In this document: positions 5,721 through 24,444 of the stretch, piece by piece | Layout: the number at the start of each line of letters is the position of its first letter | Numbering within the stretch: the stretch's first letter is position 1 | Origin: a bacterium | GTDB taxonomy: Bacteria > Patescibacteriota > Patescibacteriia > Patescibacteriales > UBA12465 | Length of the DNA: 34,101 nucleotides | Direction: 5' to 3' | Assembly: GCA_035400585.1 (NCBI GenBank) | Contig: DAOMZR010000003.1 | Coordinates: forward strand, 1 to 34,101 | Translations under genes and position numbers: made by a program | Notes under the pieces: model-generated | What the model was told of the DNA's origin: nothing | What the model saw: the letters and a program-made list of their open reading frames with translations, nothing else | The model's database searches: none

Positions 5721-6077
5721 ATGAAAGTTGTTTTAAAGGGAGCAAATAGAAATAAAGAAATCGAGAATTTCTTTATGGAAAACATTTTTCCGATTTTGGA
5801 TTTTGGTATAGCAATTGAACCGTCTGGTAACATTATTACTGTTTATAAAAAAAATGGTAATAAAGTTGAGGAGTTTATTGATCCAACCGCGGAAGTGGTA
5901 GTGGAGTTGTCGGGAGAAGTTATTAATCTAATAAAAGATAAAAATATTAGTGATGACTTACTTCGCGAAAAGGCTGGTAATTTTTTTGACGAAGCTTTGG
6001 CTATTAAAAAAATTGAAGAACTTAAACCTAATTTTTCAATTGAATATTATTCTTGTCGCTACACTCCGCCCGCTTAA
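5721..6077 (+). CDS. Orphan protein (118 aa)
   Basis: ORF starts 12 nt after the previous stop and ends just before a strong terminator. No recognisable motif. Confidence 0.65.
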   Translation: MKVVLKGANRNKEIENFFMENIFPILDFGIAIEPSGNIITVYKKNGNKVEEFIDPTAEVVVELSGEVINLIKDKNISDDLLREKAGNFFDEALAIKKIEELKPNFSIEYYSCRYTPPA

Positions 6078-6174: not shown

Positions 6175-6516
6175 ATGAAAGACTATGCTATTAAATTTTT
6201 GAACAAAATAGTTCAAGTGAAAATAGATAGACCGCTCGGATCTAAACACCCTAGGCATAATATTTATTATTCGCTTAATTATGGCTATGTTCCAGGAGTA
6301 TTGGCTCCAGATGGAGAAGAATTGGATGCTTATATTTTAGGAGTTTTTGAACCAATTGAAGAATTCATTGGAAAGTGTATAGCCATTGTTCATCGGCTCG
6401 ATGATGACGATGACAAATTGATAGTTGTTCCAAGTGAAAAAAACTATACTAAAGAACAAATTTATTCTTTAATTGAATTTCAAGAACGATTTTTTAAATC
6501 AAAAATTATTATATGA
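6175..6516 (+). CDS. Short inorganic pyrophosphatase-like protein (family I PPase core, 113 aa)
   Basis: Motifs match the family I PPase active-site region (NYGFIP, DGDPLDVLVL and an acidic cluster): DRPLGSKHP, NYGYVPGVLAPDGEELDAYILG and HRLDDDDDKLIVVP. It is shorter than the canonical ~175-aa enzyme. Confidence 0.6.
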   Translation: MKDYAIKFLNKIVQVKIDRPLGSKHPRHNIYYSLNYGYVPGVLAPDGEELDAYILGVFEPIEEFIGKCIAIVHRLDDDDDKLIVVPSEKNYTKEQIYSLIEFQERFFKSKIII

Positions 6517-7106
6517 AAATTGAATACGAAGCAACTTTTATAAACATTAACAAAGATGAAATCCGTAAAAAATTAAAAGAAATTGGAGCATCTTTGTCTA
6601 AGCCGGAATTTCTCCAAAGAAGAGAGGTTTTTGATCTGCCATCTGGCCATCAAAAAGAAGGCGCTTGGTTAAGAGTTAGGGATGAGGGAGATAAAAATAC
6701 TTTGAGTTTAAAAATAATCAACGGCGATAAAATTGAAGATCAAAAAGAAATTTCATTAATGATAAATGATTTTGAAGGAGCTTCAGAAATGTTAGCTCTT
6801 GTTGGTTGTAGAAGAAAGGCCTATCAGGAAAGCAAAAGAGAGCTTTGGATTTTAAATGATGTCGAAATCACTATTGATGAATGGCCATACTTAGAGCCGT
6901 ATGTTGAAATTGAGGGACAATCAGAGGAATCAGTTAAAAATGTGAGTCATAAAATGGGATTCGATTATTCTAAGGCTTTATTTTGTTCTGTCGATAAATT
7001 GTATGAGATGAAATATGGTGTTCCTCGAGAAATTATTTGTCATCAAATGCCCAAAATAACCTTTGATGATGAGAACCCTTTTTTGAAATTAAGTATTAAA
7101 AAATAA
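6513..7106 (+). CDS. CYTH-domain protein (triphosphate tunnel metalloenzyme / CyaB-like)
   Basis: N-terminal KIEYEATF (ExE of the ExExK motif, but the K position is Thr). Also WLRVRDEGDKNTLSLK and ITIDEWPYLEPYVEIEG, which fit the CYTH pattern. The start overlaps the upstream stop (ATGA at 6513-6516). Confidence 0.7.
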   Translation: MKIEYEATFININKDEIRKKLKEIGASLSKPEFLQRREVFDLPSGHQKEGAWLRVRDEGDKNTLSLKIINGDKIEDQKEISLMINDFEGASEMLALVGCRRKAYQESKRELWILNDVEITIDEWPYLEPYVEIEGQSEESVKNVSHKMGFDYSKALFCSVDKLYEMKYGVPREIICHQMPKITFDDENPFLKLSIKK

Positions 7107-7228: not shown

Positions 7229-7257
7229 TTGACAATTTAGTCAAAAGAATATATTAT
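7229..7257 (+). promoter_or_regulatory. Sigma70 promoter for the radical SAM gene
   Basis: TTGACA (7229-7234), 17-nt spacer, TATTAT (7252-7257); 25 nt upstream of the ATG at 7282. Confidence 0.5.
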
Positions 7258-7281: not shown

Positions 7282-8418
7282 ATGAAAGCTCATAATATGG
7301 AAAAATCTCAAGAGTTTTTGAAGGTGCGACTAAGGGTCGCTTGGATTGTGGTTACCTATGCTTGTAATAATAAATGTAATTTTTGTTACGCTCAAAGCAT
7401 GGTAAAAAAATTTATTGAAGGCGAAAGTTTACTACACATGCCTTTAAACTTTGCTTATCAGTTAGTTGATGAACTTAGAAAAATGGGTATTAAAAAGTTT
7501 CACTTAATAGGTGGCGAGCCAACGGTTTATCCTCATTTAATAGATTTAATCGAATATATTAAAATGGATAAAGGTTGTTATGTGGCCGTAGTTACCAATG
7601 GCAGGAAAATGGGTGATGAAAATTATTTACAGGAATTAATCAGAGCTGGCGTTGATAGTTTTCAAATTTCAATTCAAGGAGCTGACGCTGAAAGACATAA
7701 TATGGTAACTGGTAGTTGTAGCTTTGATATGTCTTATAAAGCTTTATTAAATCTAGCCCATCTCAAGTTTCCTAAATTTTTTTCAGCAATTACTGTCAGC
7801 AAGGACAATTACGATCAGGTTGAAGATTTTATTCGAACTATGAAGAGGGAAATTTTTGTTGGAAATCATTCCGGTAAAATTTTTATCAATTTTGCAACTC
7901 CGAGTATAAATTTTGATTCCCCAGGAGCTGTTAATGGTGATTATGCTTTAAATCCTAGGGAAGTTGCCGATTTTGTAGTTAAAATTGACTCACTCTTTCC
8001 CCATGACTTGTATCCAGAAATTGTTTTTTCAAGCCGAGTTCCTATATGTTTTTATCCTGATGATTTTTTGGATAAGCTAGTTAAAAATGAAAGATTGAGT
8101 AGTGGTTGTTCTTGTGGTGTCCACAAATCTGGAATTGTTTCCATCGATCCCCAGGGAGATGTTTTGCCCTGTACTAATTTTGCCGGAACAAAACTTTTTA
8201 ACTGTCGTGATTCAAATGGCGACTTTGACCGAGATTCTTTTATTAATGGAATAAATAATTATTTTCCTAAAATAAAAGAAATCACACACTCTTATCCATC
8301 AAAAAATTGTCGAGGATGCTCTAAATTTTATAAATGTTTTGGCGCCTGCTTATTTTGGTGGACCTATTTTAATCCTGATGAATATATAAAGCCGTTGCCA
8401 TATGATAAACTCTCTTGA
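7282..8418 (+). CDS. Radical SAM enzyme with complete C-terminal SPASM domain (peptide-modifying maturase type)
   Basis: CX3CX2C cluster motif CNNKCNFC near the N-terminus, with GGEPT downstream. The SPASM signature is complete: C-x13-G-x4-C (CGVHKSGIVSIDPQGDVLPC) and CX2CX5CX3C (CRGCSKFYKCFGAC). There is no N-terminal extension that could hold an RRE domain. Confidence 0.85.
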   Translation: MKAHNMEKSQEFLKVRLRVAWIVVTYACNNKCNFCYAQSMVKKFIEGESLLHMPLNFAYQLVDELRKMGIKKFHLIGGEPTVYPHLIDLIEYIKMDKGCYVAVVTNGRKMGDENYLQELIRAGVDSFQISIQGADAERHNMVTGSCSFDMSYKALLNLAHLKFPKFFSAITVSKDNYDQVEDFIRTMKREIFVGNHSGKIFINFATPSINFDSPGAVNGDYALNPREVADFVVKIDSLFPHDLYPEIVFSSRVPICFYPDDFLDKLVKNERLSSGCSCGVHKSGIVSIDPQGDVLPCTNFAGTKLFNCRDSNGDFDRDSFINGINNYFPKIKEITHSYPSKNCRGCSKFYKCFGACLFWWTYFNPDEYIKPLPYDKLS

Positions 8419-8573
8419 TTTTCTCTCTGAGAAATTGGGTAGTAGACAAAAAATGAATTCGATAGATCGAATCAAATTTGTCTTCTTCAAAAATGGTTTC
8501 AATAAAAAAGTGGTTATTTTATCTTTTTTAAAGAAGCACATGTTTTTCTTCCTATATTTATTAGCTCTCACTA

Positions 8574-8610
8574 CTTACCTATTGGTAAGGTTATTTTCTA
8601 ATTTTTAGTT
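8574..8610 (+). promoter_or_regulatory. Hairpin plus T-rich tract upstream of small ORF A (attenuator/terminator-like), copy 1
   Basis: CTTACC (8574-8579) / GGTAAG (8584-8589), loop TATT, then GTTATTTTCTAATTTTTAGTTTTTT. Copy 2 keeps the structure through two compensatory base-pair changes. Confidence 0.45.
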
Positions 8611-8634
8611 TTTTAAATTTTAAAATTTTCTATC

Positions 8635-8784
8635 ATGGATCCGGTTGTAGGCGGTTTAATTATCGGAGGCCTTATCGCTGTTATTCAAGAAATTAGAGGC
8701 AGCAATGATAAGGGGAGTGACAAAGACGATGATAAGAATAGTGATTATGACAATGGATGCAATTGCTCCGTTGACCAAAATTAA
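8635..8784 (+). CDS. Candidate precursor peptide A (49 aa), not in the ORF track
   Basis: Encodes MDPVVGGLIIGGLIAVIQEIRGSNDKGSDKDDDKNSDYDNGCNCSVDQN. A paralog lies 625 bp downstream. The two copies differ mostly by synonymous or conservative changes plus an in-frame 9-nt indel, which indicates a translated sequence. Confidence 0.6.
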   Translation: MDPVVGGLIIGGLIAVIQEIRGSNDKGSDKDDDKNSDYDNGCNCSVDQN

Positions 8785-8876
8785 CATTCTTATATTCTTT
8801 TCTTAAGCCTAAAACCAAAAAATACGTGAAGAAGAACAATTAACTATTATTAGCTTATGCTAATGCTAACCCTAAA

Positions 8877-8910
8877 CCCCCTGAGAATCTCAGGGGGTGT
8901 TATATTTATA
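8877..8910 (+). terminator. Hairpin/terminator after small ORF A
   Basis: Perfect 9-bp stem CCCCCTGAG (8877-8885) / CTCAGGGGG (8889-8897), loop AAT, followed by TGTTATATTTATA. It is preceded by a second conserved hairpin, ATTAGC-TTAT-GCTAAT. Both are conserved in copy 2. Confidence 0.5.
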
Positions 8911-8924
8911 TCCACCTTTTATCA

Positions 8925-8953
8925 TTGACATTTCTAATATAAAACGATAAAAT
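8925..8953 (+). promoter_or_regulatory. Sigma70 promoter P1 inside the repeat unit
   Basis: TTGACA (8925-8930), 17-nt spacer, TAAAAT (8948-8953). Duplicated at 9554-9582. Confidence 0.55.
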
Positions 8954-8965
8954 TTTTGCAAAGAT

Positions 8966-8996
8966 TTCATCACCCTTGTTCGTACAAGAAGATGAG
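8966..8996 (+). promoter_or_regulatory. 5' leader stem-loop just downstream of P1
   Basis: TTCATC (8966-8971) / GATGAG (8991-8996) plus inner CTTGT (8975-8979) / ACAAG (8984-8988). The equivalent position in copy 2 forms a perfect 10-bp stem of different sequence. Confidence 0.4.
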
Positions 8997-9206
8997 TTTT
9001 AAGCAACTTAAAATTTGAATAATAATTAAAATATTAATTATAAAAATAAAAAGTTTAAAGAGGCCGGATCTTAATTTAATTTCAGGTTTGCTTGAAATTT
9101 TAAGATAAAATCTCTCAGAAAGTAATGGCTTCAATGAAAAAGTGGTTGTTCTAAGTTTTTTTAAAGAAGCATGTGTTTTTCTTCCTATGTTTATCAACTC
9201 TCACTA

Positions 9207-9240
9207 CTTGCTATGAGCAAGGTTCTTTTCTAACTTTTAA
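9207..9240 (+). promoter_or_regulatory. Hairpin plus T-rich tract upstream of small ORF B, copy 2
   Basis: CTTGCT (9207-9212) / AGCAAG (9216-9221), loop ATG, then GTTCTTTTCTAACTTTT. It covaries with copy 1. Confidence 0.45.
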
Positions 9241-9259
9241 ATTTTAATGTTTTCTTACC

Positions 9260-9400
9260 ATGGATCCACTAATCGGTTGCCTCATTATTGGGGGAATTAT
9301 CGGCATCATCCAGGAGGTCAGTGGCAGCAGCGACAAAGGGAAGGATGACGATGACAAGGATTATGACAATGGATGCAATTGTTCCATTGATCAAAATTAG
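9260..9400 (+). CDS. Candidate precursor peptide B (46 aa), not in the ORF track
   Basis: Encodes MDPLIGCLIIGGIIGIIQEVSGSSDKGKDDDDKDYDNGCNCSIDQN. The C-terminal 13 residues DYDNGCNCS(V/I)DQN match peptide A except for one V/I change. Confidence 0.6.
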   Translation: MDPLIGCLIIGGIIGIIQEVSGSSDKGKDDDDKDYDNGCNCSIDQN

Positions 9401-9506
9401 TGTTTTTATTTTTTTGTAAATCAAAAAAGTGGAGGGCTTTAAGTCTAAACAAATTGGAAAAAGAGAACATTAACTATGATTAGCTTATGCTAATACAAAC
9501 CCTAAT

Positions 9507-9540
9507 CCCCCTGAGGTTCTCAGGGGGATTATATTTATAT
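9507..9540 (+). terminator. Hairpin/terminator after small ORF B
   Basis: CCCCCTGAG (9507-9515) / CTCAGGGGG (9519-9527), loop GTT, followed by ATTATATTTATAT. Confidence 0.5.
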
Positions 9541-9553
9541 CCACCTTTTATCA

Positions 9554-9582
9554 TTGACATTTTTAATATAAAATGATAATAT
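9554..9582 (+). promoter_or_regulatory. Sigma70 promoter P2 (duplicate of P1), drives the 519/552-aa gene
   Basis: TTGACA (9554-9559), 17-nt spacer, TAATAT (9577-9582). Confidence 0.55.
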
Positions 9583-9594
9583 TTTCGGAAAGAT

Positions 9595-9625
9595 TTCATT
9601 ACTTTTAATAATATTAAGTAATGAA
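9595..9625 (+). promoter_or_regulatory. 5' leader stem-loop just downstream of P2
   Basis: Perfect 10-bp stem TTCATTACTT (9595-9604) / AAGTAATGAA (9616-9625). Confidence 0.45.
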
Positions 9626-9770
9626 GTTTAAGTAACTTAAAATCTGAATAATAACTAAAAAAATAATAATCATGAGAACAAAAAGTTTAAAGAGCCTAGG
9701 TCTTAACTTAAGTTTAAGCGCGCTCAGAATATTGAGAGGCATATCTGCCCAAAAAGTGGTTATAGTTGAA

Positions 9771-11330
9771 ATGAACTTTTTTTATAGGTTCTTAAATTTT
9801 TTCGGTTTCCTTTATTTAAGTTTAGAGGAATTTAGCAAACTATATTTTTATTTACCCGTTGAACGTTTTTCTGAAATTAGCACCGAGTTAAAAAAAATTG
9901 CTGATGATTTTATTTCTTGGAAAAGATTTTTTGAACTGAATCGTTATTCTGCCAAAACACTCAAAGATATGGCCCTAAATGAAATGAGTAAATTGGCGAA
10001 AACTTTTCAGCAGGCTAACGATGGTTTTAGATTGTCGTTTGGCAATATTGTTATGGAGGAGAAATTTTTAGAAATAATGGAATTACACGCTGTTTCTTTT
10101 GAAGAAAAAATGATCCTTGTTAAATGTAGAAATCCAATTAATGAAGAAAGATTAGATGAACTTTTGCCAATGATAAAAACTTTTTTAAGCGCTGAACAAT
10201 TTGTTAGTATTGTTGGTGTTAGCCAAAAATATAAAAACAAAGGCCTTAAAAAAATGCTTAGCCTAGCCAGCTCTTACAGGGAGCTGATTAGAACCCATCG
10301 TAGAGTTAAACCAGGATCCCCCTTGCGTCGCTTAATAGTAAGTGAGGTTGAGAAATATGAAATGTTGCAAGAAGAGCTGCTACAATCCTATTACGAAGAA
10401 AAGAATTGGAGCAGGCTTAAAAGAATGTTGTATGGAAAGATAGAAAAATTAGTCTTAGGTATCGAGGATTGGATTGAAATTTTACTCAAATACGGCGATG
10501 ATAAAAAATTAAAGAATCTGGCCATGAGTAAAATGCGTCAATTGGGATTGGGTTTTGATCAGCTCAATAACACCTTAGCTCGCGCCAAAGATCCTGAAGT
10601 TAAAGAGGTTATTTTGGAAGAAATGCTTTCTCTGGCTGAGGGAATTTTTGACAGATTAACTATTGTTGCCATTAAATCCGATGAATTTCCTCAAATATTT
10701 GGCAAAGCCTTTTTGTCGTTGGTGGATATCGTGCAAACGCTGGAGGAGTCAAAAAGGATTTGTGAAATTTTAACAACTTCCAAGAATAAAAATAATTCTG
10801 ATTTTATATCAAGAATTTTAAAACTCGATGTTGATTTTTCTATTTTGGAAAAGTTGTTTGTGAAATCATCCAAAGAGGGAAAAGAATTATTAATCCCCAC
10901 ATTATATATTCTGGCCAAAGGAAATTTTGATAATTTATCAAAAACATTTGATCATAGTTTGGCTCTGGAAAACAAGGACAGAAAAAAAATTCAAACCAAA
11001 TGCCTAAGGGATGTGTTTTCTCTAGAAAAAGAAAGCAACGATTTGGGCAAATTGATTAGAGTTTATAATATGGCTTTAATCATCGGCGATTTTCAGATAT
11101 CAGAAAAAATTGTAAATACAATCAGTAAACTAGAATTTGATTTTAAAACACTATTAACAGCCTATGAGAATTTAGAGAAATTAAGAATTACTAATAATGG
11201 TTTAGCTAAGTTCTTGCAAACAGAAATGATTAGCAAAGCTCAAACCGAAGAAGAGAAAAGACAGGCGTTTATTAAAGCGCCAATCCAAATACAAAATATT
11301 GCCCTCACCAATTTGTTGGGAGCGGCCTAA
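9771..11330 (+). CDS. All-helical orphan protein (519 aa from ATG 9771; ORF track start 9672 probably too early)
   Basis: Long ORF rich in L/E/K with repeated helix-like segments and no recognised motif. Nucleotides 9680-9765 are homologous to non-coding repeat DNA at 9048-9135, where the same frame has stops. This favours the in-frame ATG at 9771 (MNFFYRF...). Confidence 0.7.
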   Translation: MNFFYRFLNFFGFLYLSLEEFSKLYFYLPVERFSEISTELKKIADDFISWKRFFELNRYSAKTLKDMALNEMSKLAKTFQQANDGFRLSFGNIVMEEKFLEIMELHAVSFEEKMILVKCRNPINEERLDELLPMIKTFLSAEQFVSIVGVSQKYKNKGLKKMLSLASSYRELIRTHRRVKPGSPLRRLIVSEVEKYEMLQEELLQSYYEEKNWSRLKRMLYGKIEKLVLGIEDWIEILLKYGDDKKLKNLAMSKMRQLGLGFDQLNNTLARAKDPEVKEVILEEMLSLAEGIFDRLTIVAIKSDEFPQIFGKAFLSLVDIVQTLEESKRICEILTTSKNKNNSDFISRILKLDVDFSILEKLFVKSSKEGKELLIPTLYILAKGNFDNLSKTFDHSLALENKDRKKIQTKCLRDVFSLEKESNDLGKLIRVYNMALIIGDFQISEKIVNTISKLEFDFKTLLTAYENLEKLRITNNGLAKFLQTEMISKAQTEEEKRQAFIKAPIQIQNIALTNLLGAA

Positions 11331-11388: not shown

Positions 11389-11475
11389 ATTTACACCCCT
11401 TATTGCTTAATTTTAAAGCCAATGGTACTATTGTAATATGATTATTTATAGGACTTGCATCTTTCGTCATGTTAA

Positions 11476-11502
11476 AAGTGACCAGCAGACGCCGGGTCAC
11501 TT
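11476..11502 (+). promoter_or_regulatory. GC-rich hairpin in the helicase leader or extreme 5' coding region
   Basis: AAGTGACC (11476-11483) / GGTCACTT (11495-11502) with an 11-nt GC-rich loop. It sits between the two candidate ATG starts (11469 and 11508). Confidence 0.4.
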
Positions 11503-11507
11503 ATTTT

Positions 11508-13469
11508 ATGTTAAACAATAAAGAAAAACATTTGAAATTTGGGGATTTAGCAATAAAACCCGCTATTTTAACTACTTTGGAGAAAAATGGCTTAATAGAG
11601 CCGACACCTATTCAATCCAAGGCTATTCCTGTTGCTATTTCTGGCAAAGATTTGATAGGTATTGCTCAAACAGGAACGGGAAAGACTTTGGCTTTTGGTA
11701 TACCACTAGTCCAAAGATTGCTTCAAGATAAATCTAGAGCTTTAGTTCTTTTACCAACCAGAGAATTGGCTGTTCAAGTTGAGGAAAGTTTAAGAAAAAT
11801 ATCATTAAATTCTGGATTAAGAACAATATCTTTGATTGGTGGAGAAGCTATTAATCGTCAAATATATGGTTTGAAATATAATCCCAGAATTATGATTGCT
11901 ACTCCTGGTAGATTGTTGGATCATTATAAGAGAAAAACAATTAATTTAGAAAATATTTCAGTTTTAGTCTTGGACGAAGCCGATATGATGTTTGATTTAG
12001 GATTTGCCCCTCAAATTGAAGAGATTATTCAGCTGACACCGATCAATAGACAAACTCTTCTTTTTTCAGCCACTATGCCAGCTCCAATTATTAAATTAGC
12101 TGAAAAATATTTAAAATCACCACTTCAAATAGAGGTGGCTCCAGCCGGTACCACAGCTGAACTAGTTGATCAAGAAATTTATCTAGTTCATCGAGAGGAG
12201 CGTTTGGAAACTTTAAAAAAAATATTGCTTGATTATAAAAATTTAGTTTTAATTTTTGTTAGAACAAAACATGGAGCGACTAATTTAACTGAAAAACTTA
12301 AAACTGACGGTCATCAAGTAAGTGAAATTCATTCCAATTTATCCTTTGGTCAGCGTAAAATGGCCTTAGCTTCTTTTAAAAATGGAACCAAGAGAATATT
12401 AGTAGCTACCGATGTGGCGGCTCGTGGACTAGATATTAAAGATATAGAGTTGGTTCTTAATTTTGATTTGCCAGATAACTCAGAAGATTATGTTCATCGT
12501 ATAGGTAGAACAGCTAGAGCAGGTAAAGGGGGAAAAGCTATTTCTTTTGCCCTTCCTCATCAACGCAGAGAAATACAAAGAATAGAACGTTTAATCAGAA
12601 AAAATTTACCATTATTGAAGATTGGATCTTTGAAGGCTGAGCCAGAAAGAAGAACAAGAACTAAAGAAACAGCTAGTTCTTACAGTAAATTTGGCAAAAA
12701 TAATTTCGCTAAGTCAAGAGATTTTAACAGAAACAATCAATCAGGTTTTAGTCGTTCAAGATTTTCTGAAAACAAAAAATTTGAACAAAAAAAGTTTGTA
12801 AGATCGGAAAATCCAGCATCTTTTAATGACAGAAAGAATGAAGACAGAAAATATGGTAAAGATGAAAAATATAAAAAAGAAGGAGGGTATAGTTTTGGTG
12901 AAAGATATAATAAAGACAAGAAGTATGATAGAGACGAGAAATATGATAGAGACAAAAAATATGACAGGGGAGAAAAATATGATAAAAATAAAAAGTATGA
13001 CAGAAATGAAAGGTATAACAAAGATAAAAAGTATGGTAAAGATGAAAAATATGGTAAAAACAAATTTTCAAGATTAGAAAATTTTAGCAAGAATGATTTC
13101 AGAGGAATAAGTGAGCAAAAATTTTTTGGAGGCAGAAAAAGCGATACAAGCAGAAACGAAGGCTCTTTTAAGGGTGGAAAATTTTCAAAACCCAGAACAA
13201 GCAATTCTTCTTTTTATGGAAATAAATATGAAAATAAAAAAGCAGATAATGCTTTTTCATCTCCTAGATCAGAAAAAAAGAGTAGTTTTTCTAAATTTAA
13301 GGGTCCAGAGAAAAATGATTATTCTAAATTTAAACCATCTAAATTAAAATCTTCAGAAAATTCTTCTCGCTCTAAAAATAAAAGAGGAGAGATGAGCAGG
13401 GTAAGCTTTTCTAAAAAATTTACAAAAAAAGACAGCTCTCGAAGATTTAAAACAAATAAAAAATATTAA
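11508..13469 (+). CDS. DEAD-box ATP-dependent RNA helicase with a long basic low-complexity C-terminal tail (alternative start 11469)
   Basis: All core motifs are present: Q motif (FGDL...PTPIQ), AQTGTGKT, PTRELA, TPGR, DEAD, SAT, ARGLD and HRIGRTARAG. The last ~270 aa are K/R/D/N/Y/S-rich. Confidence 0.9.
   Translation: MLNNKEKHLKFGDLAIKPAILTTLEKNGLIEPTPIQSKAIPVAISGKDLIGIAQTGTGKTLAFGIPLVQRLLQDKSRALVLLPTRELAVQVEESLRKISLNSGLRTISLIGGEAINRQIYGLKYNPRIMIATPGRLLDHYKRKTINLENISVLVLDEADMMFDLGFAPQIEEIIQLTPINRQTLLFSATMPAPIIKLAEKYLKSPLQIEVAPAGTTAELVDQEIYLVHREERLETLKKILLDYKNLVLIFVRTKHGATNLTEKLKTDGHQVSEIHSNLSFGQRKMALASFKNGTKRILVATDVAARGLDIKDIELVLNFDLPDNSEDYVHRIGRTARAGKGGKAISFALPHQRREIQRIERLIRKNLPLLKIGSLKAEPERRTRTKETASSYSKFGKNNFAKSRDFNRNNQSGFSRSRFSENKKFEQKKFVRSENPASFNDRKNEDRKYGKDEKYKKEGGYSFGERYNKDKKYDRDEKYDRDKKYDRGEKYDKNKKYDRNERYNKDKKYGKDEKYGKNKFSRLENFSKNDFRGISEQKFFGGRKSDTSRNEGSFKGGKFSKPRTSNSSFYGNKYENKKADNAFSSPRSEKKSSFSKFKGPEKNDYSKFKPSKLKSSENSSRSKNKRGEMSRVSFSKKFTKKDSSRRFKTNKKY
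12849..13065 (+). repeat. In-frame 18-nt (hexapeptide) tandem repeats, consensus K-Y-D/G-R/K-D/N-E/K, about 10-12 units
   Basis: Reads KYGKDE KYKKEG ... KYDRDE KYDRDK KYDRGE KYDKNK KYDRNE RYNKDK KYGKDE KYGKNK. The nucleotide units AAATATGATAGAGACNNN are visibly reiterated. Confidence 0.7.
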
Positions 13470-16103: not shown

Positions 16104-17747
16104 ATGAATTTGGACGAGAATAAAATTAGGCAAATACTTTTAGATCAAAATTATATCACCACGCTTGATTTACAAAAGGCAGAAAAATCTGTAGGCGATA
16201 ATGCTTCAATCGTTGATTATTTTTTAGATCAAGGAATTTTAAATAAAAAACTTTTAGGGCAAGCTCTAGCTGAGTATGAAAAAGTTCCTTATTTTGACTT
16301 GAAGAATAATTTGCCATCTTATGAGCAAATACTTAAATTTCCAGAAGAAATTGCTAGAGAATATCGCTTAATCTTTACTAAAGAAGATGAAGATAAAATG
16401 TTTTTTACTTCCGATATTCCAAGCGAATCAAAAAAAGTTTTTATGAGTATGGGTGATTTATTTCCGATTGAAAATATAACAATTTCATACTCACTGCCAG
16501 AAGATATTGATTTTGCTTTGGATTATTTTTATAAAAAACCTCTTAAAACCAGATTTAGTGATATTATTAAAAGTGGTCGCAAAGTGGCCCAGGAAATAGT
16601 TACTGAAATTTTTAGAGATGCATTATCTTATAATTCTTCTGATATTCACTTTGAACCACAGGGAAAAGAAACTATTATTCGTTTTAGAGTCGATGGTGTT
16701 TTACAAGAGGCTGGTAGAGTTTCCAATGAATACTACAACAACATTTTAAATTTTATAAAAGTTCAAAGTGGTCTTAGAATAGATGAACACTATTCAGCTC
16801 AAGATGGCTCAATGAATTATAAATTCGGTAAACAAGAAGTGGATATGCGTATTTCTATTTTGCCAGTAGTTAGTGGTGAAAAAATAGCTATCCGTATTTT
16901 AGCTAAATATATTAAAGGTTTTGGTTTGCATGAAATTGGGCTAGAAAAAAAAGATAGGGATTTAATGAGAAAAGAAATTCAAAGACCGTTTGGTATGATT
17001 TTAACTTCCGGTCCAACTGGAAGTGGTAAAACAACTACTCTTTATTCTTTGCTTAGACTTTTGAATAATCCTCGAGTAAATATAACTACCCTTGAAGACC
17101 CAATCGAATATAGAATAAAAGGCACAAACCAAATACAGGTTAATTCAGTTACTAATTTAACATTTTCTAGGGGTCTTAGAACTATTGTTCGTCAAGATCC
17201 AGATGTTATTATGGTTGGAGAAATTAGAGATGAAGAAACAGCTGAAATGGCGGTTAATGCTTCTTTGACCGGACATTTATTATTATCAACTTTTCATGCT
17301 AATGATTCAGCTACTACTATTGCTCGTCTTTTAGATATGGGGGTCGAACCATTTTTATTGGCCTCTACCTTAAGAGTTGTTATTGCTCAAAGGTTAGTAA
17401 GAAAGCTTTGTGAAAAATGTCGCTATAGCGTCTCTATTTCTAAAGATGATTTTAAAAAAGAACATCCTGATGTAGCTAAATATTTAAAAAAAGATAATAA
17501 TATTTTTTATCAGTCTCATGGTTGCGAGGCTTGCGGTTATACTGGTTATAATGGTCGAACGGCTATTTTCGAAATAATATTAAACACTCCGGAATTACAA
17601 GATTTAATTCTTTCCAGGCCATCAGCTAAACAAATTTGGGAACTAGCCAAGCAACAAGGATCTGGTTCTTTGTTTTCTGATGGTATGCAGAAAGTTAAGG
17701 CTGGCGTTACATCTTTAGATGATTTATTACGCGTTGCTTTACCATAG
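16104..17747 (+). CDS. pilB: Type IV pilus assembly ATPase PilB (GspE family)
   Basis: N-terminal GSPII-E N-domain-like region, Walker A SGPTGSGKTTT, Asp box, Walker B DPDVIMVGEIRD, His box, and tetracysteine CEKC...CEAC. Confidence 0.9.
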   Translation: MNLDENKIRQILLDQNYITTLDLQKAEKSVGDNASIVDYFLDQGILNKKLLGQALAEYEKVPYFDLKNNLPSYEQILKFPEEIAREYRLIFTKEDEDKMFFTSDIPSESKKVFMSMGDLFPIENITISYSLPEDIDFALDYFYKKPLKTRFSDIIKSGRKVAQEIVTEIFRDALSYNSSDIHFEPQGKETIIRFRVDGVLQEAGRVSNEYYNNILNFIKVQSGLRIDEHYSAQDGSMNYKFGKQEVDMRISILPVVSGEKIAIRILAKYIKGFGLHEIGLEKKDRDLMRKEIQRPFGMILTSGPTGSGKTTTLYSLLRLLNNPRVNITTLEDPIEYRIKGTNQIQVNSVTNLTFSRGLRTIVRQDPDVIMVGEIRDEETAEMAVNASLTGHLLLSTFHANDSATTIARLLDMGVEPFLLASTLRVVIAQRLVRKLCEKCRYSVSISKDDFKKEHPDVAKYLKKDNNIFYQSHGCEACGYTGYNGRTAIFEIILNTPELQDLILSRPSAKQIWELAKQQGSGSLFSDGMQKVKAGVTSLDDLLRVALP

Positions 17748-17750
17748 TTT

Positions 17751-18791
17751 ATGTCTTTAAATAAAAGCTATCTAATAGAAAATTTAGCAACCTTAGTTGA
17801 AGCCGGAATAAATATTCCCGAGGCTTTATCGATTGTATCTTCTGGTGTCAAAAACAAATCTTTTAAATCAGTTGTTGACGGAATTAAGGATAGTGTTGAT
17901 TCTGGTTTTTCTTTGTGGCAATCTTTTGAAAAGACTGGAATCTTTTCTAAGAGAGATATTTCTTTGATTATGATCGGAGAAGACTCTGGGCATTTAGTAG
18001 AAAATTTAAATATTTTATCGCTTCAACATCAAAAAGAAAAATTTTTTAGATATAAAGTTTATTCAGCTTTAATGTATCCCAGTTTAGTTCTTTTTTTGGT
18101 TTTGGTTATTGGAACTGGAATGAGTTGGTTTCTTTTGCCAAGATTAGCCTTAGTTTTTGTTCAATTAGATGCTAAATTGCCGACTATAACTAAAGTTATG
18201 ATTTCTGTTGGTAATTTTTTTGGAAACTATGGCTTGTTTTTCTTTCCTTTGCTTTTCATCTTTTTATTTTTATTCTTTTATATAATCTTTGTTCACAAAA
18301 AAACAAAAGTTATTGGTCAAAAATTTTTATTTAATTTTTTTAGTACTCGAAAATTAATTTTAGAAGCTGAACTATCTCGTTTTGGTTATGTTTTAGGAAC
18401 ACTGCTTAATGCCGGCTTCTCTATAGACGAATCTTTAAGATTAATGAATCAGGCCAGTACTCTTCCTTTTTACGGCGATTTCTATCTTTATTTATCGGAA
18501 AGCGTTTCTGATGGTATATCTCTTAAAGATAGTTTTAATTCTTTTAATGGCTCACAAAAATTAATACCAAGTTCTGTTCAGGAGATGATTTTTGTTGGTG
18601 AGCGCTCTGGCAAATTACCAGAAATACTTCTTAAAATAGGAAAGAATTACGAAGAGAAGCTGGATATTACTACCAGAAATTTGTCAGCTGTTTTAGAACC
18701 GGTTCTTTTAATAGCTGTTTGGTTGGGCGTGGTATTTCTTGCTTTATCTATCATTCTTCCGGTTTATAATTTAATTAGCAATATTAATTAG
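17751..18791 (+). CDS. pilC: Type IV pilus platform protein PilC (GspF family)
   Basis: 346 aa with the duplicated GspF-type cytoplasmic domain (SLWQSFEK.../SLKDSFNS...) and three TM segments. It lies immediately after pilB. Confidence 0.85.
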   Translation: MSLNKSYLIENLATLVEAGINIPEALSIVSSGVKNKSFKSVVDGIKDSVDSGFSLWQSFEKTGIFSKRDISLIMIGEDSGHLVENLNILSLQHQKEKFFRYKVYSALMYPSLVLFLVLVIGTGMSWFLLPRLALVFVQLDAKLPTITKVMISVGNFFGNYGLFFFPLLFIFLFLFFYIIFVHKKTKVIGQKFLFNFFSTRKLILEAELSRFGYVLGTLLNAGFSIDESLRLMNQASTLPFYGDFYLYLSESVSDGISLKDSFNSFNGSQKLIPSSVQEMIFVGERSGKLPEILLKIGKNYEEKLDITTRNLSAVLEPVLLIAVWLGVVFLALSIILPVYNLISNIN

Positions 18792-22344: not shown

Positions 22345-22375
22345 AGACACTCCTTTCCGGGGTGTCTTTTTTTGT
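22345..22375 (+). terminator. Rho-independent terminator
   Basis: AGACACTCC (22345-22353) / GGGGTGTCT (22359-22367) with one G-T pair, then T7. Confidence 0.75.
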
Positions 22376-22398
22376 TTAAAAATGCTAAAATACTGTTG

Positions 22399-24444
22399 AT
22401 GTTTGGTAAAGACAAAAAAGACTTTGATCCTTTTGTGGTCAAGGAAAAAAAATTTAAATTTGGTAATCTTAAGGACTCTTTCTACCATTTAGGGTGGATG
22501 GAAGATTCTTTTTTATTTGGTGAAAACAATAATGAGACTTTGAAAAAAACTTTTGATTCCAGCAAAACTAAACATATTTTTTCCTTCTTATTGTTGTTTT
22601 TCTTTATATTGTTGGCTCGTCTTTTTTGGCTGCAAATTTTTAAAGGGGATGAATATCGTGCTATGGCGGAAGGTAATAGGGTTAGGACCGTTAGTATTGA
22701 GCCCAAAAGAGGTATTATTTATGATTCTAATAGAATTTCTTTAGTTAAAAATGAAGCTAACTTTGTTCTTTATTTAATCCCTTCTGAAATGCCAAAAGAT
22801 GAGCTAGAGCGCGATCGAATTTTGCGCCAGCTTTCTTTTATAATTGACAATAAAACCGAAGATACCGACGCTCAAAATGTAACTGAAAATACAGGAGATT
22901 ATTCTTCCTTTGAATTTTTAGAAGATAGTGATTATTTTTATTTTGTTAAAAACAAATTAGATAAGATTAAATATGGCTCCTTAGAATCTTTTAGGCCCTT
23001 GTTTATAATGGATAATTTAGAACATGAGGCTGTTATTGCCATATCCCTAGAAACTGAAAAAATGCCAGGGGTTTCTCTCTCTGTTAAAATGGGTCGTTCG
23101 TATGTTGGTTCAGAAAGTTCTTTATCAAGTCTTTCTCATGTTATTGGATATACTGGCAAAATTTCTGAAAAAGATTTGGATGTTTTTGGTGAAGAATATT
23201 CTTTAATTGATTATATTGGAAAAACTGGATTGGAATATTTTTATGAAAATGAATTAAAAGGACAGAAGGGAAAAAAATACACTGAAGTTGACGCTTTAGG
23301 TAGAGAGAAAAAAATTATTAATAAAACATTGCCAGTAGATGGTTCCAACTTGGTTTTGAGTCTAAATTCTAAATTGCAAGCCAAAATTGAAGAAATATTA
23401 AAAGAAAGGCTTAAAAAAAATAATTTGGGTCGATCATCGGTTGTAGTTTTGGACCCGAGAAACGGCGAGATTTTGTCTTTAGTTTCTTGGCCAGCTTATG
23501 ATAATAATATTTTTTCCAAAGGAGTAAGCCAATCTGATTATAGTAAATTATTAAATGATCCCGACAGACCTTTGTTTAATAGGGCTGTTAATGGCACTTT
23601 TCCCTCTGGCTCAACGCTTAAACCAACTATCGCTGCCGCCGCTCTTGAGGAGGGAGTTGTTAAAGAAAGCACTTATGTTAATAGTCGCGGTGGCATTAAT
23701 GTTGGCCAGTGGTTTTTTCCTGATTGGAAAGCCGGTGGTCATGGCATGACTGATGTTAAAAAAGCTATTGCTGAATCAGTAAACACCTTTTTTTATTATA
23801 TTGGCGGTGGTTATGAAAATTTTTCTGGACTTGGAATTGATAGAATTGTTAAATATTTAAATCTTTTTGGTTTGGGTGCTCAGAGTGGATTAGACCTACC
23901 TCAAGAAGCTAGGGGCTTTGTTCCAACTCCAGAGTGGAAAGAAGAATCAAGAGGTGAGGTTTGGTATATCGGAAATACTTATCACGTTTCTATCGGTCAA
24001 GGTGATATTTTAGTCACACCACTTCAAGTAGCTAATTTTACCGCTTTTTTTGCTAATGGCGGCAAATTATATCGCCCCCATTTAGTTAAAGAAATATTAG
24101 ATGGTGAAAATCAATTAATTAGAAAAATAGAGCCAGAAATTATTAGAGATAATTTTATAAGCGATAAGAATATAAAAATAGTTAAAGACGGCATGAGACA
24201 AACCGTTGTTTCAGGCAGTGCTAGACGCTTGGATATTTTGCCTTACAAAATATCTGGCAAGACCGGAACGGCTCAATGGGGAACCAATAAAACTCCCCAT
24301 GCTTGGTTTACCTCTTTTGCGCCTTACGATGATCCAGAAATAGTCATTACCATTTTGATAGAAGAAGGAAAGGAAGGCAGTGATTTACCAGTGACCATTG
24401 CTGGTGAAATATTTGATTATTATTTTTCCGAGAAAAATAGATAG
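22399..24444 (+). CDS. mrdA: Penicillin-binding protein 2 (class B transpeptidase); first ATG at 22399
   Basis: N-terminal TM anchor (IFSFLLLFFFILLARLFWLQ), PBP dimerisation region, SxxK (STLK), SxN (SVN) and KTG (KTGTA). The track start at 22372 is a TTG inside the pilin terminator T-run. Confidence 0.85.
   Translation: MFGKDKKDFDPFVVKEKKFKFGNLKDSFYHLGWMEDSFLFGENNNETLKKTFDSSKTKHIFSFLLLFFFILLARLFWLQIFKGDEYRAMAEGNRVRTVSIEPKRGIIYDSNRISLVKNEANFVLYLIPSEMPKDELERDRILRQLSFIIDNKTEDTDAQNVTENTGDYSSFEFLEDSDYFYFVKNKLDKIKYGSLESFRPLFIMDNLEHEAVIAISLETEKMPGVSLSVKMGRSYVGSESSLSSLSHVIGYTGKISEKDLDVFGEEYSLIDYIGKTGLEYFYENELKGQKGKKYTEVDALGREKKIINKTLPVDGSNLVLSLNSKLQAKIEEILKERLKKNNLGRSSVVVLDPRNGEILSLVSWPAYDNNIFSKGVSQSDYSKLLNDPDRPLFNRAVNGTFPSGSTLKPTIAAAALEEGVVKESTYVNSRGGINVGQWFFPDWKAGGHGMTDVKKAIAESVNTFFYYIGGGYENFSGLGIDRIVKYLNLFGLGAQSGLDLPQEARGFVPTPEWKEESRGEVWYIGNTYHVSIGQGDILVTPLQVANFTAFFANGGKLYRPHLVKEILDGENQLIRKIEPEIIRDNFISDKNIKIVKDGMRQTVVSGSARRLDILPYKISGKTGTAQWGTNKTPHAWFTSFAPYDDPEIVITILIEEGKEGSDLPVTIAGEIFDYYFSEKNR

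Follow-up and report, generated by a model that had tools for sequence, protein, structure and literature searches.

A candidate peptide-modifying radical SAM/SPASM cassette with a tandemly duplicated peptide gene in a Patescibacteriota contig

The locus described here lies in a 34,101-nt stretch of a Patescibacteriota genome (contig DAOMZR010000003.1 of assembly GCA_035400585.1), which at its full length is called the window. It is best described as a three-gene cassette encoding a radical S-adenosylmethionine (SAM)/SPASM enzyme of 378 amino acids (7282-8418), a basic protein of 68 amino acids termed orfB (8402-8608) and an acidic, Cys-containing peptide of 49 amino acids (peptide 1, 8635-8784). 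This reading, together with the mechanism proposed below, has a probability of about 0.6. In this strain the peptide gene is tandemly duplicated, the paralogous copy encoding 46 amino acids (peptide 2, 9260-9400). The features of the locus between 7229 and 9582 are on the plus strand unless stated otherwise. An initial annotation had recognized the enzyme and the two short open reading frames (ORFs) and proposed a candidate locus for a ribosomally made peptide that is modified post-translationally (RiPP). Every observation that it had listed as able to refute this proposal and that can be computed was looked for, and none was made. Its placement of the peptides directly downstream of the enzyme gene has to be corrected: the conserved orfB, which it overlooked, precedes peptide 1 and overlaps the stop codon of the enzyme gene by 17 nt.

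Both peptide ORFs are present as annotated, and together with orfB they are real genes under purifying selection. The peptide copies differ at 9, 4 and 28 sites in codon positions 1, 2 and 3, respectively (47 codons), with proportions of synonymous (pS) and nonsynonymous (pN) differences of 0.86 and 0.15 (Nei-Gojobori). Comparison of the peptides with their homologues in two other lineages, Falkowbacteria HGW-1 (contig L001, 54 aa) and an ENA contig (L010, 46 aa), gave ratios of nonsynonymous to synonymous substitution rates (dN/dS) of 0.10-0.18, with saturated synonymous sites and indels that are all in frame. The third-position bias and these ratios bear out the proposal that the small ORFs are protein-coding, and coding-type conservation is not lacking. 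The same holds for the proposed in-frame length difference: the gaps in the ORF total 9 nt, whereas the flanking repeat contains gaps of 1, 2, 4, 5 and 9 nt.

In peptide 1, a Gly-rich hydrophobic N-terminus (residues 3-20) is joined by an acidic D/K linker to a C-terminal core that is invariant. The N-terminal stretch of the peptides resembles a membrane anchor (Kyte-Doolittle 19-residue mean 1.6-1.9), and the peptides are acidic (charge -1 to -7). Peptides 1 and 2 share 72% protein identity and end in DYDNGCNCS(V/I)DQN, the V/I exchange being the sole difference in the last 13 residues. The core can be written as D-x-D-x-x-C-N-C-S-(V/I)-D-Q-N, in which D37, D39, C42, N43, C44, S45, D47, Q48 and N49 are invariant; Y38, the single aromatic residue, is not conserved and is replaced by R in L010. 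Motifs absent from the peptide sequences are a C-terminal Gly-Val-Tyr, a Glu/Tyr pair and C/S-x-P/A-x-R. The four peptides found no match at E ≤ 10 in NCBIfam, whose precursor models include SCIFF TIGR03973, and only sub-threshold noise in Pfam. The peptide family is very small: a word-indexed search of 5.8 billion proteins returned only four clusters, an exhaustive search of 1.84 billion representatives with a hidden Markov model (HMM) returned the same four, and the strict DNA pattern CNCS[VI]DQN-stop occurs in one genome across the GTDB genomes.

The orfB protein is strongly basic (charge +8 in the window, +8 to +10 across the orthologues) and has a single C-terminal hydrophobic helix, which suggests a tail-anchored membrane protein. 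Both L001 (where it has 70 aa) and L010 (68 aa) retain it, at a dN/dS of 0.13-0.15, and among the GTDB genomes it was found only in Falkowbacteria HGW-1, the same single genome that carries the peptide pattern. No Pfam or NCBIfam model, including those for PqqD and the RiPP recognition element (RRE), matched orfB at E ≤ 10.

Close relatives of the enzyme are rare, with four clusters of 57-99% identity among 5.8 billion proteins. The DNA downstream of the enzyme gene is covered for three lineages, namely the window species (L004, L012-L017), Falkowbacteria HGW-1 (L001, with an enzyme 70% identical to that of the window) and L010; the contigs L002 and L003, with enzymes of 57% and 79% identity, stop at the enzyme gene and are uninformative on downstream ORFs. 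The order enzyme-orfB-peptide is kept in all three lineages despite differing neighbours. In the window the cassette is flanked by a pyrophosphatase-like/CYTH pair upstream and a gene for a 552-aa protein downstream, in L001 by an HD-like gene upstream and the pyrophosphatase-like/CYTH pair downstream, and in L010 by a GNAT gene downstream. Orthologues without an adjacent small ORF were thus not seen; the homologous peptide is present wherever downstream DNA is available (3/3 lineages). A conserved short precursor gene beside a modifying enzyme is a generic feature of RiPP loci and is found here, with the last 13 residues of the peptide nearly invariant. As a separate observation, the short pyrophosphatase-like gene and the CYTH gene stay paired beside the cassette (window 6175-7106; L001 7671-8614).

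The enzyme belongs to the radical SAM superfamily. The motif C28-x3-C32-x2-C35 for the SAM cluster is read directly from the sequence and the Pfam model Radical_SAM (PF04055) matches with 94.1 bits against a cutoff of 29.5 (E 1.4e-26), so the CX3CX2C site was annotated correctly. The description of the C-terminal half as a textbook SPASM domain holds in part. The criterion applied was the motif CX9-15GX4C ... CX2CX5CX3C ... C, whose Cys serve as ligands of two auxiliary [4Fe-4S] clusters. Both Cys motifs are present (C278-x13-G292-x4-C297 and C343-x2-C346-x5-C352-x3-C356) and the isolated C-terminal domain passes TIGR04085 (NCBIfam; 33.2 bits, cutoff 27), but it stays below the cutoff of PF13186 (16.1 bits, cutoff 21.5), and no Pfam SPASM match was reported for the full-length enzyme. 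Moreover, there is no Cys after C356; the extra conserved Cys is C256, upstream of the motifs. The enzyme shares this arrangement with a wider family described below, in which a Cys after C356 is missing in 96 of 114 members and C256 is the seventh conserved Cys of the C-terminal half, so that ten Cys are conserved in total (28, 32 and 35 for the SAM cluster, and 256, 278, 297, 343, 346, 352 and 356). By analogy with the structure of the anaerobic sulfatase-maturating enzyme (anSME), which we take as a guide, these seven Cys would fully ligate one auxiliary cluster; the second would presumably be bound by three Cys, its fourth position being open or occupied by a non-Cys ligand. CteB (entry 5WGG) is said to bind the substrate Cys at an open auxiliary-cluster site, and a ligation pattern with an open site may, by the same analogy, apply to the window enzyme.

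An AlphaFold2 model of the enzyme built from 114 relatives (pLDDT 92.8, pTM 0.91) forms a partial TIM barrel, with BlsE, CteB, SuiB and anSME as Foldseek neighbours in the PDB (query-normalised TM-score 0.58-0.67). In this model the radical SAM core begins around residue 19, so an N-terminal RRE-type domain is absent. A sequence search of the PDB gave weak generic radical SAM matches only, the best being the lipid-modifying GDGT-MAS (E 1.3e-9). In NCBIfam, the full-length enzyme best matches the mycofactocin maturase MftC (TIGR03962), with 89.9 bits against a cutoff of 265 and an alignment mostly over residues 13-187. For the C-terminal domain, 12 of the 13 named models matched are peptide- or protein-maturation enzymes, among them ScfB-like, SCIFF, PapB, DynA, DarE, MftC and QhpD, all far under their cutoffs. 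Clustering with sulfatase maturases or cofactor enzymes was not seen, and no named NCBIfam family comes near its cutoff. Relatives of the enzyme were not found in viral contigs.

Additionally, the enzyme is a member of a wider family, as is evident from full-length homology and the ten shared Cys. A weak metagenome match (L007, 26% identity) carries a small ORF directly upstream of the enzyme gene, ending ...SDCDCDCDCQGTDCSECGGGDCSDCNCTSDTND. With the L007 enzyme added to the profile, 343 proteins of 335-365 aa were collected at E ≤ 1e-8. Their identity to the window enzyme is 25-33%, in alignments that cover more than 90% of the length. In a tblastn search with the window enzyme, the alignments spanned residues ~15-370 and the E values lay between 5e-54 and about 1e-22; the scan of GTDB genomes yielded 80 loci. 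The family is represented by L022-L100 (for example L022 2983-4923, L063 2806-4675 and L045 2971-4284). The hosts include Uhr-, Veblen-, Falkow-, Morani-, Shapiro- and Saccharibacteria of the candidate phyla radiation (CPR), Woese-, Pace- and Nanoarchaeota of the DPANN group, and Firmicutes (Clostridia, Bacilli and Erysipelotrichaceae of gut or rumen). In a neighbour-joining tree the window clade forms a long branch that is sister to a CPR/DPANN group. Generic models match 114 family enzymes at only about 1e-30, five further family enzymes and five peptides gave no specific model match, and neither a Pfam or NCBIfam name covering the enzymes nor a description of the family in the literature was found. 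The window locus is therefore not categorically new. It is a divergent, lineage-restricted variant of an unnamed radical SAM/SPASM and Cys/Asp-peptide family, and the novelty suggested by the initial annotation holds only at the level of a divergent subfamily.

Nearly all loci of the wider family have a same-strand ORF of 44-115 aa directly upstream or downstream of the enzyme gene with a Cys/Asp-rich C-terminus, examples of which are SCDCCDCADCSCDCVN, DCDCDCDCECDCDCD, DLDCNCVDGDCSTETYEY and DNLDCNCIDCGDDADCSTPW. By a fixed criterion, a small ORF with Cys and acidic residues occurs within 450 nt of the enzyme gene in 59/79 loci; such ORFs account for 67 of 782 small ORFs near the enzyme and, in the rest of these loci, for 18 of 2786 (odds ratio 14, p 1e-29). 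The family thus resembles the window locus in the conserved Cys set and in an adjacent small ORF with a Cys-containing acidic C-terminus, and some cores, such as DCNC(V/I)D and DCNCTSD, are like GCNCS(V/I)D of the window peptides. Furthermore, in a sister CPR clade the precursor gene overlaps the 3′ end of the enzyme gene in the way that orfB does in the window. The leaders of the family share a loose L-x-x-L-L...G-(T/G) pattern, whereas the N-terminus of the window peptide is hydrophobic. A protein of about 220 aa with a conserved HExxH motif is encoded just downstream in 24/79 loci of both CPR and DPANN (L022 4219-4923, L063 4022-4675; also L007 4070-4774), and is a possible leader peptidase for the wider family. 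An HMM of this protein found the L007 copy at E 1.4e-70, whereas the window, L001, L004, L010 and L012 gave no match with an E value better than 0.5; neither the HExxH protein nor the family peptides belong to a Pfam family. As a side observation, the L007 enzyme gene has an in-frame TGA (~5967-5969) at the column of the conserved Cys356, after which the conserved tail PIYWTKFMPDNEI continues; this may be a selenocysteine codon or a sequencing error.

The most likely function of the system would be maturation of the D-x-D-x-x-C-N-C-S-(V/I)-D-Q-N core at the C-terminus of the peptide. The SAM-bound [4Fe-4S] cluster of the enzyme would generate a 5′-deoxyadenosyl radical, and the enzyme would act on the invariant core, where an Asp or Asn would most likely lose a hydrogen atom to the radical, from its alpha carbon or a carbon of its side chain. 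This carbon could then be bonded to a Cys thiolate bound at an auxiliary cluster, so that one or two thioether rings of the ranthipeptide or QhpD type would form within the peptide. Radical SAM/SPASM enzymes that form Cys-Asp, Cys-Glu and Cys-Asn thioethers are known from PapB, QhpD and NxxcB (PMC9413430, PMC10739248, PMC10114670). In view of these precedents and the invariant core we regard the peptide as the probable substrate of the enzyme, and thioether formation as a tentative assignment that has somewhat worse than even odds. The basic part of orfB, which would face the cytoplasm, and the acidic peptide tail suggest a role for orfB in presenting the peptide, as an adaptor or chaperone. 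The product probably stays cell-associated and would not be a secreted antibiotic, since neither a peptidase nor an exporter is present and the N-terminus of the peptide resembles a membrane anchor.

Several results weigh against this interpretation. The enzyme scores below the cutoff of every thioether-forming family model, judged by the ranthipeptide and sactipeptide maturase models NF047865 (PapB; 45.8 bits, cutoff 340), NF045574 (StsB; 63.5 bits, cutoff 625), TIGR03974 (SCIFF maturase; 24.7 bits in the scan of the C-terminal domain, cutoff 425) and TIGR04403 (SkfB). No RRE, peptidase or exporter was found near the cassette in domain scans of the window, in agreement with what had been noted initially; the sole transporter in the 34 kb is an EamA half-transporter about 4 kb from the cassette. 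In comparison with the wider family, the window peptide has two Cys where the relatives have 4-20, its maximal Kyte-Doolittle value (15-/19-residue window) is 1.6-2.6 as compared to 0.1-1.2 for the family leaders, and the cassette contains orfB and lacks the HExxH protein. Homology between the window peptides and the family precursors is undetectable (hhalign probability 1.4%), and no such homology is claimed; the link between them is drawn from the homology of the enzymes, the gene position and the C-terminal motif of the type (D/N/G)-C-N/D-C-(S/T/V/I)-D. Finally, other radical SAM/SPASM chemistries on Cys-containing peptides are possible.

Such a different chemistry within the same enzyme-peptide pair, with orfB as a small partner like MftB or PqqD, appears rather unlikely. 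It could consist of Cys oxidation to formylglycine as in anSME, of C-terminal oxidative decarboxylation or a C-C crosslink as in MftC and PqqE, giving a peptide-derived cofactor, of epimerisation, or of the maturation of a metal-binding Cys/Asp site. The combination of an enzyme, a small protein and a peptide with an invariant extreme C-terminus (DQN) recalls MftABC and PqqADE; MftC is the best full-length NCBIfam match, though with 90 bits against 265, anSME is among the nearest folds (TM-score 0.63-0.67) and the D/C-rich cores of the wider family resemble metal ligands. However, orfB matches no PqqD or RRE model, or any other model of Pfam or NCBIfam, at E ≤ 10, the peptides have none of the corresponding substrate motifs (C-terminal Gly-Val-Tyr, Glu/Tyr pair, C/S-x-P/A-x-R), their one aromatic residue, Y38, is variable, and downstream genes for cofactor tailoring are absent within the 34 kb. 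It is improbable that the small ORFs are ordinary small membrane proteins, adjacent only through co-transcription to an enzyme that acts on a lipid, a cofactor or another protein, even though both small proteins have a membrane-anchor-like hydrophobic stretch, the peptides show no leader-like similarity to known RiPP precursors, and the best PDB sequence match, GDGT-MAS (E 1.3e-9), modifies lipids. In that case it would be difficult to account for the persistence of the trio among changing neighbours, for the strictest conservation of the peptide being in the soluble Cys-containing C-terminus and not in the anchor, and for the Cys/acidic peptides that adjoin enzyme relatives in three phylum-level groups. 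The notion that repeated intergenic DNA merely happens to contain these small reading frames by chance is effectively refuted. The non-coding parts of the tandem repeat are indeed also conserved (84-91%) and no evident Shine-Dalgarno sequence lies upstream, but dN/dS of 0.1-0.2 against other lineages, the 9/4/28 bias, indels that are in frame only within the ORFs and break the frame in the adjacent remnants, and independent calls of the same protein in other assemblies all point to genes.

A speculative extension concerns the N-terminus of orfB (M-I/V-N-S-L-D-F-L-x-E-K-L-G), which looks like leaders from archaea and CPR bacteria, for example MVNSLIALLDGLKLTG. An HMM built on the full set of 54 wider-family leaders placed the window orfB sixth of 489 ORFs (E 2.3), and one of hand-picked archaeal and CPR leaders placed the three orfB orthologues at ranks 2, 3 and 12 of 489 (E 0.3-3.9); hhalign of orfB against the wider-family leaders gave a probability of 0.9%. 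In view of the weak E values and this probability, orfB was not accepted as a proven homologue of the family leader, and the resemblance is suggestive only. With its position at the place of the precursor gene of the sister CPR clade and its leader-like N-terminus, orfB would carry the leader if an ancestral precursor had been split into two membrane-anchored polypeptides, with the Cys core on the peptide. The two would pair via their hydrophobic helices and opposite charges, and the leader would act in trans. We consider both the split and the pairing to be long shots; if true, the crosslinked product would be membrane-tethered and a functional component of the CPR surface or membrane, not a secreted natural product.

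The interpretation of the locus as an enzyme-orfB-peptide cassette includes a copy-number change of the peptide gene. Peptide 2 arose from a tandem duplication of about 630 bp (window 8420-9760), in which the duplicated segment starts midway through orfB and ends near codon 25 of the gene for the 552-aa protein downstream. As a consequence of these boundaries copy 2 opens with two dead, non-coding fragments (9050-9241), which precede the intact peptide gene. One (9050-9123) is left over from the 552-aa gene, of which it represents the first ~25 codons, and holds stops; the other (9124-9241) is a remnant of the 3′ half of orfB with 1-nt indels and a premature stop. A consensus scan found a promoter-like site (TTGACA-17-TATTAT, 11/12 consensus matches) at 7229-7257, 25 nt before the start codon of the enzyme gene, which is likely the start of the enzyme-orfB-peptide 1 transcript. 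Each duplicated unit contains a strong terminator-like hairpin and a promoter-like site, TTGACA-17-TAAAAT or TTGACA-17-TAATAT. In the first unit the predicted hairpin (8876-8898; -19.3 kcal/mol, z-score -4.2) has a 10-bp stem with 7 G-C pairs and is followed by a T-rich tail; the TAAAAT site (8925-8953) lies upstream of peptide 2. The second hairpin (9503-9531; -22.5 kcal/mol, z-score -4.2) has a 13-bp stem, and the TAATAT site (9554-9582), found by the same scan, belongs to the 552-aa gene. Because the promoter-like site was duplicated with the unit, peptide 2 is probably transcribed from a copy of the promoter of the 552-aa gene. An Rfam scan of the whole window gave zero matches, and no known RNA therefore accounts for the non-coding sequence that is conserved in the repeat.

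The two-copy arrangement is also present in L004, where peptide 2 is identical. A near-identical strain, represented by six contigs (L012-L017), has a single copy and no peptide 2 (L012 5500-6200). This single copy is a chimera, which follows copy 1 of the window up to about position 8935 and thereafter the tail of copy 2, a structure that unequal crossing-over within the terminator/promoter block (91% identical) would be expected to produce. In L012, orfB contains a short patch acquired by conversion from the dead copy, in which codons are swapped (Leu TTA to CTA, Ser TCT to AGT) and the protein is unchanged. The divergence between the copies is mosaic: the peptide ORF is 74% identical and the flanking blocks 84-91%, with 91% for the terminator/promoter block (8839-8957 vs 9469-9586) that stands beside the saturated synonymous sites of the peptide. 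The pattern points to ongoing gene conversion or to an old duplication with later deletion; the saturated sites beside the 91% block are explained either by mosaic gene conversion or by an imported foreign allele. The locus thus offers a worked example of recent change in precursor copy number, with duplication, conversion and deletion among near-identical strains. At its synonymous sites, peptide 2 is nearest to the L010 allele (pS 0.57). Two short minus-strand ORFs in the terminator/promoter block (8890-9006 and 9480-9599) share MKS..K.Y.FIL.MSMIKGGYKYN and are probably a by-product of the conserved DNA. Within orfB a 6-bp hairpin is followed by a T-rich run (8574-8589), and the dead copy (9207-9221) retains the hairpin via different bases; a role as attenuator was dropped, the folding z-scores being not significant.

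The 552-aa protein (9672-11330) has no Pfam or NCBIfam match and occurs in Falkowbacteria HGW-1 as a protein of 555 aa, about 2 kb from the cassette. In the DEAD-box helicase gene (11469-13469), a tandem repeat with a period of 18/36 nt (12848-13064) encodes a repetitive tail rich in K, Y, D and R. The remaining window, including 16104-18791 and 22372-24444, appears ordinary for a CPR genome and contains type IV pilus ATPase and platform genes, a PBP2-type transpeptidase, a LexA-like S24 peptidase, the EamA half-transporter, and three large ORFs (1246, 1260 and 510 aa) without a Pfam match.

CPR bacteria and DPANN archaea have tiny genomes with few recognisable biosynthetic pathways, and a radical SAM system for peptide modification that is conserved in them is thus probably important to how these organisms live. 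As a minimal candidate substrate, with two Cys, three invariant Asp and 13 conserved residues, the window peptide offers a tractable route to the chemistry of the wider family, which is also found in gut Firmicutes. The design of the precursor is unusual in its anchor-like N-terminus and the dedicated small basic membrane partner, and the lack of peptidase and exporter suggests a product that stays on the cell.

Among the known systems, anSME resembles the window enzyme in having a radical SAM core and a SPASM domain, no RRE and a length of about 370 aa, with a TM-score of 0.63-0.67. The sulfatase maturase model TIGR03942 (cutoff 349) is not among the 25 best NCBIfam matches of the window enzyme, and relatives of the enzyme score 45-57 bits with it. 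Unlike anSME substrates, the window peptides lack C/S-x-P/A-x-R, and there is no sulfatase gene nearby. The mycofactocin (MftA/B/C) and pyrroloquinoline quinone (PqqA/D/E) systems are similar in combining the enzyme with a small accessory protein and a very short peptide that is modified near its C-terminus. They differ in that the MftC score of the window enzyme is 90 against 265, orfB is a membrane protein without a PqqD/RRE signature, no MftB-like protein is present, and the window peptides end in DQN, with the substrate motifs and downstream pathway genes being absent.

QhpD is a radical SAM/SPASM enzyme that forms intra-chain methylene thioethers from Cys to Asp or Glu, and its product is kept in the machinery of the cell (PMC10114670). 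The QhpD/QhpC pair, which acts on the gamma-subunit of quinohemoprotein amine dehydrogenase, differs from the window locus: the enzyme scores 13.5 bits against a QhpD cutoff of 453, the cassette has no amine dehydrogenase genes nearby, and its candidate substrate is a peptide of 46-49 aa with a hydrophobic N-terminus. In the ranthipeptide systems (PapB/PapA of freyrasin, NxxcB, and the SCIFF enzymes CteB and Tte1186), PapB links Cys to Asp in C-x3-D motifs (PMC9413430, PMC10739248), and the thioethers of NxxcB and PapB go to non-alpha carbons (PMC10114670). Whereas the window locus departs from these systems by HMM scores far under the cutoffs, only two Cys, no RRE, an anchor-like N-terminus of the precursor, the extra 68-aa membrane protein and the lack of peptidase and exporter, it shares with them a radical SAM/SPASM enzyme beside a short precursor with a core of Cys and Asp/Asn/Ser; CteB is among the nearest folds of the enzyme, and the nearest named models for its SPASM region include ScfB-like, SCIFF and PapB.

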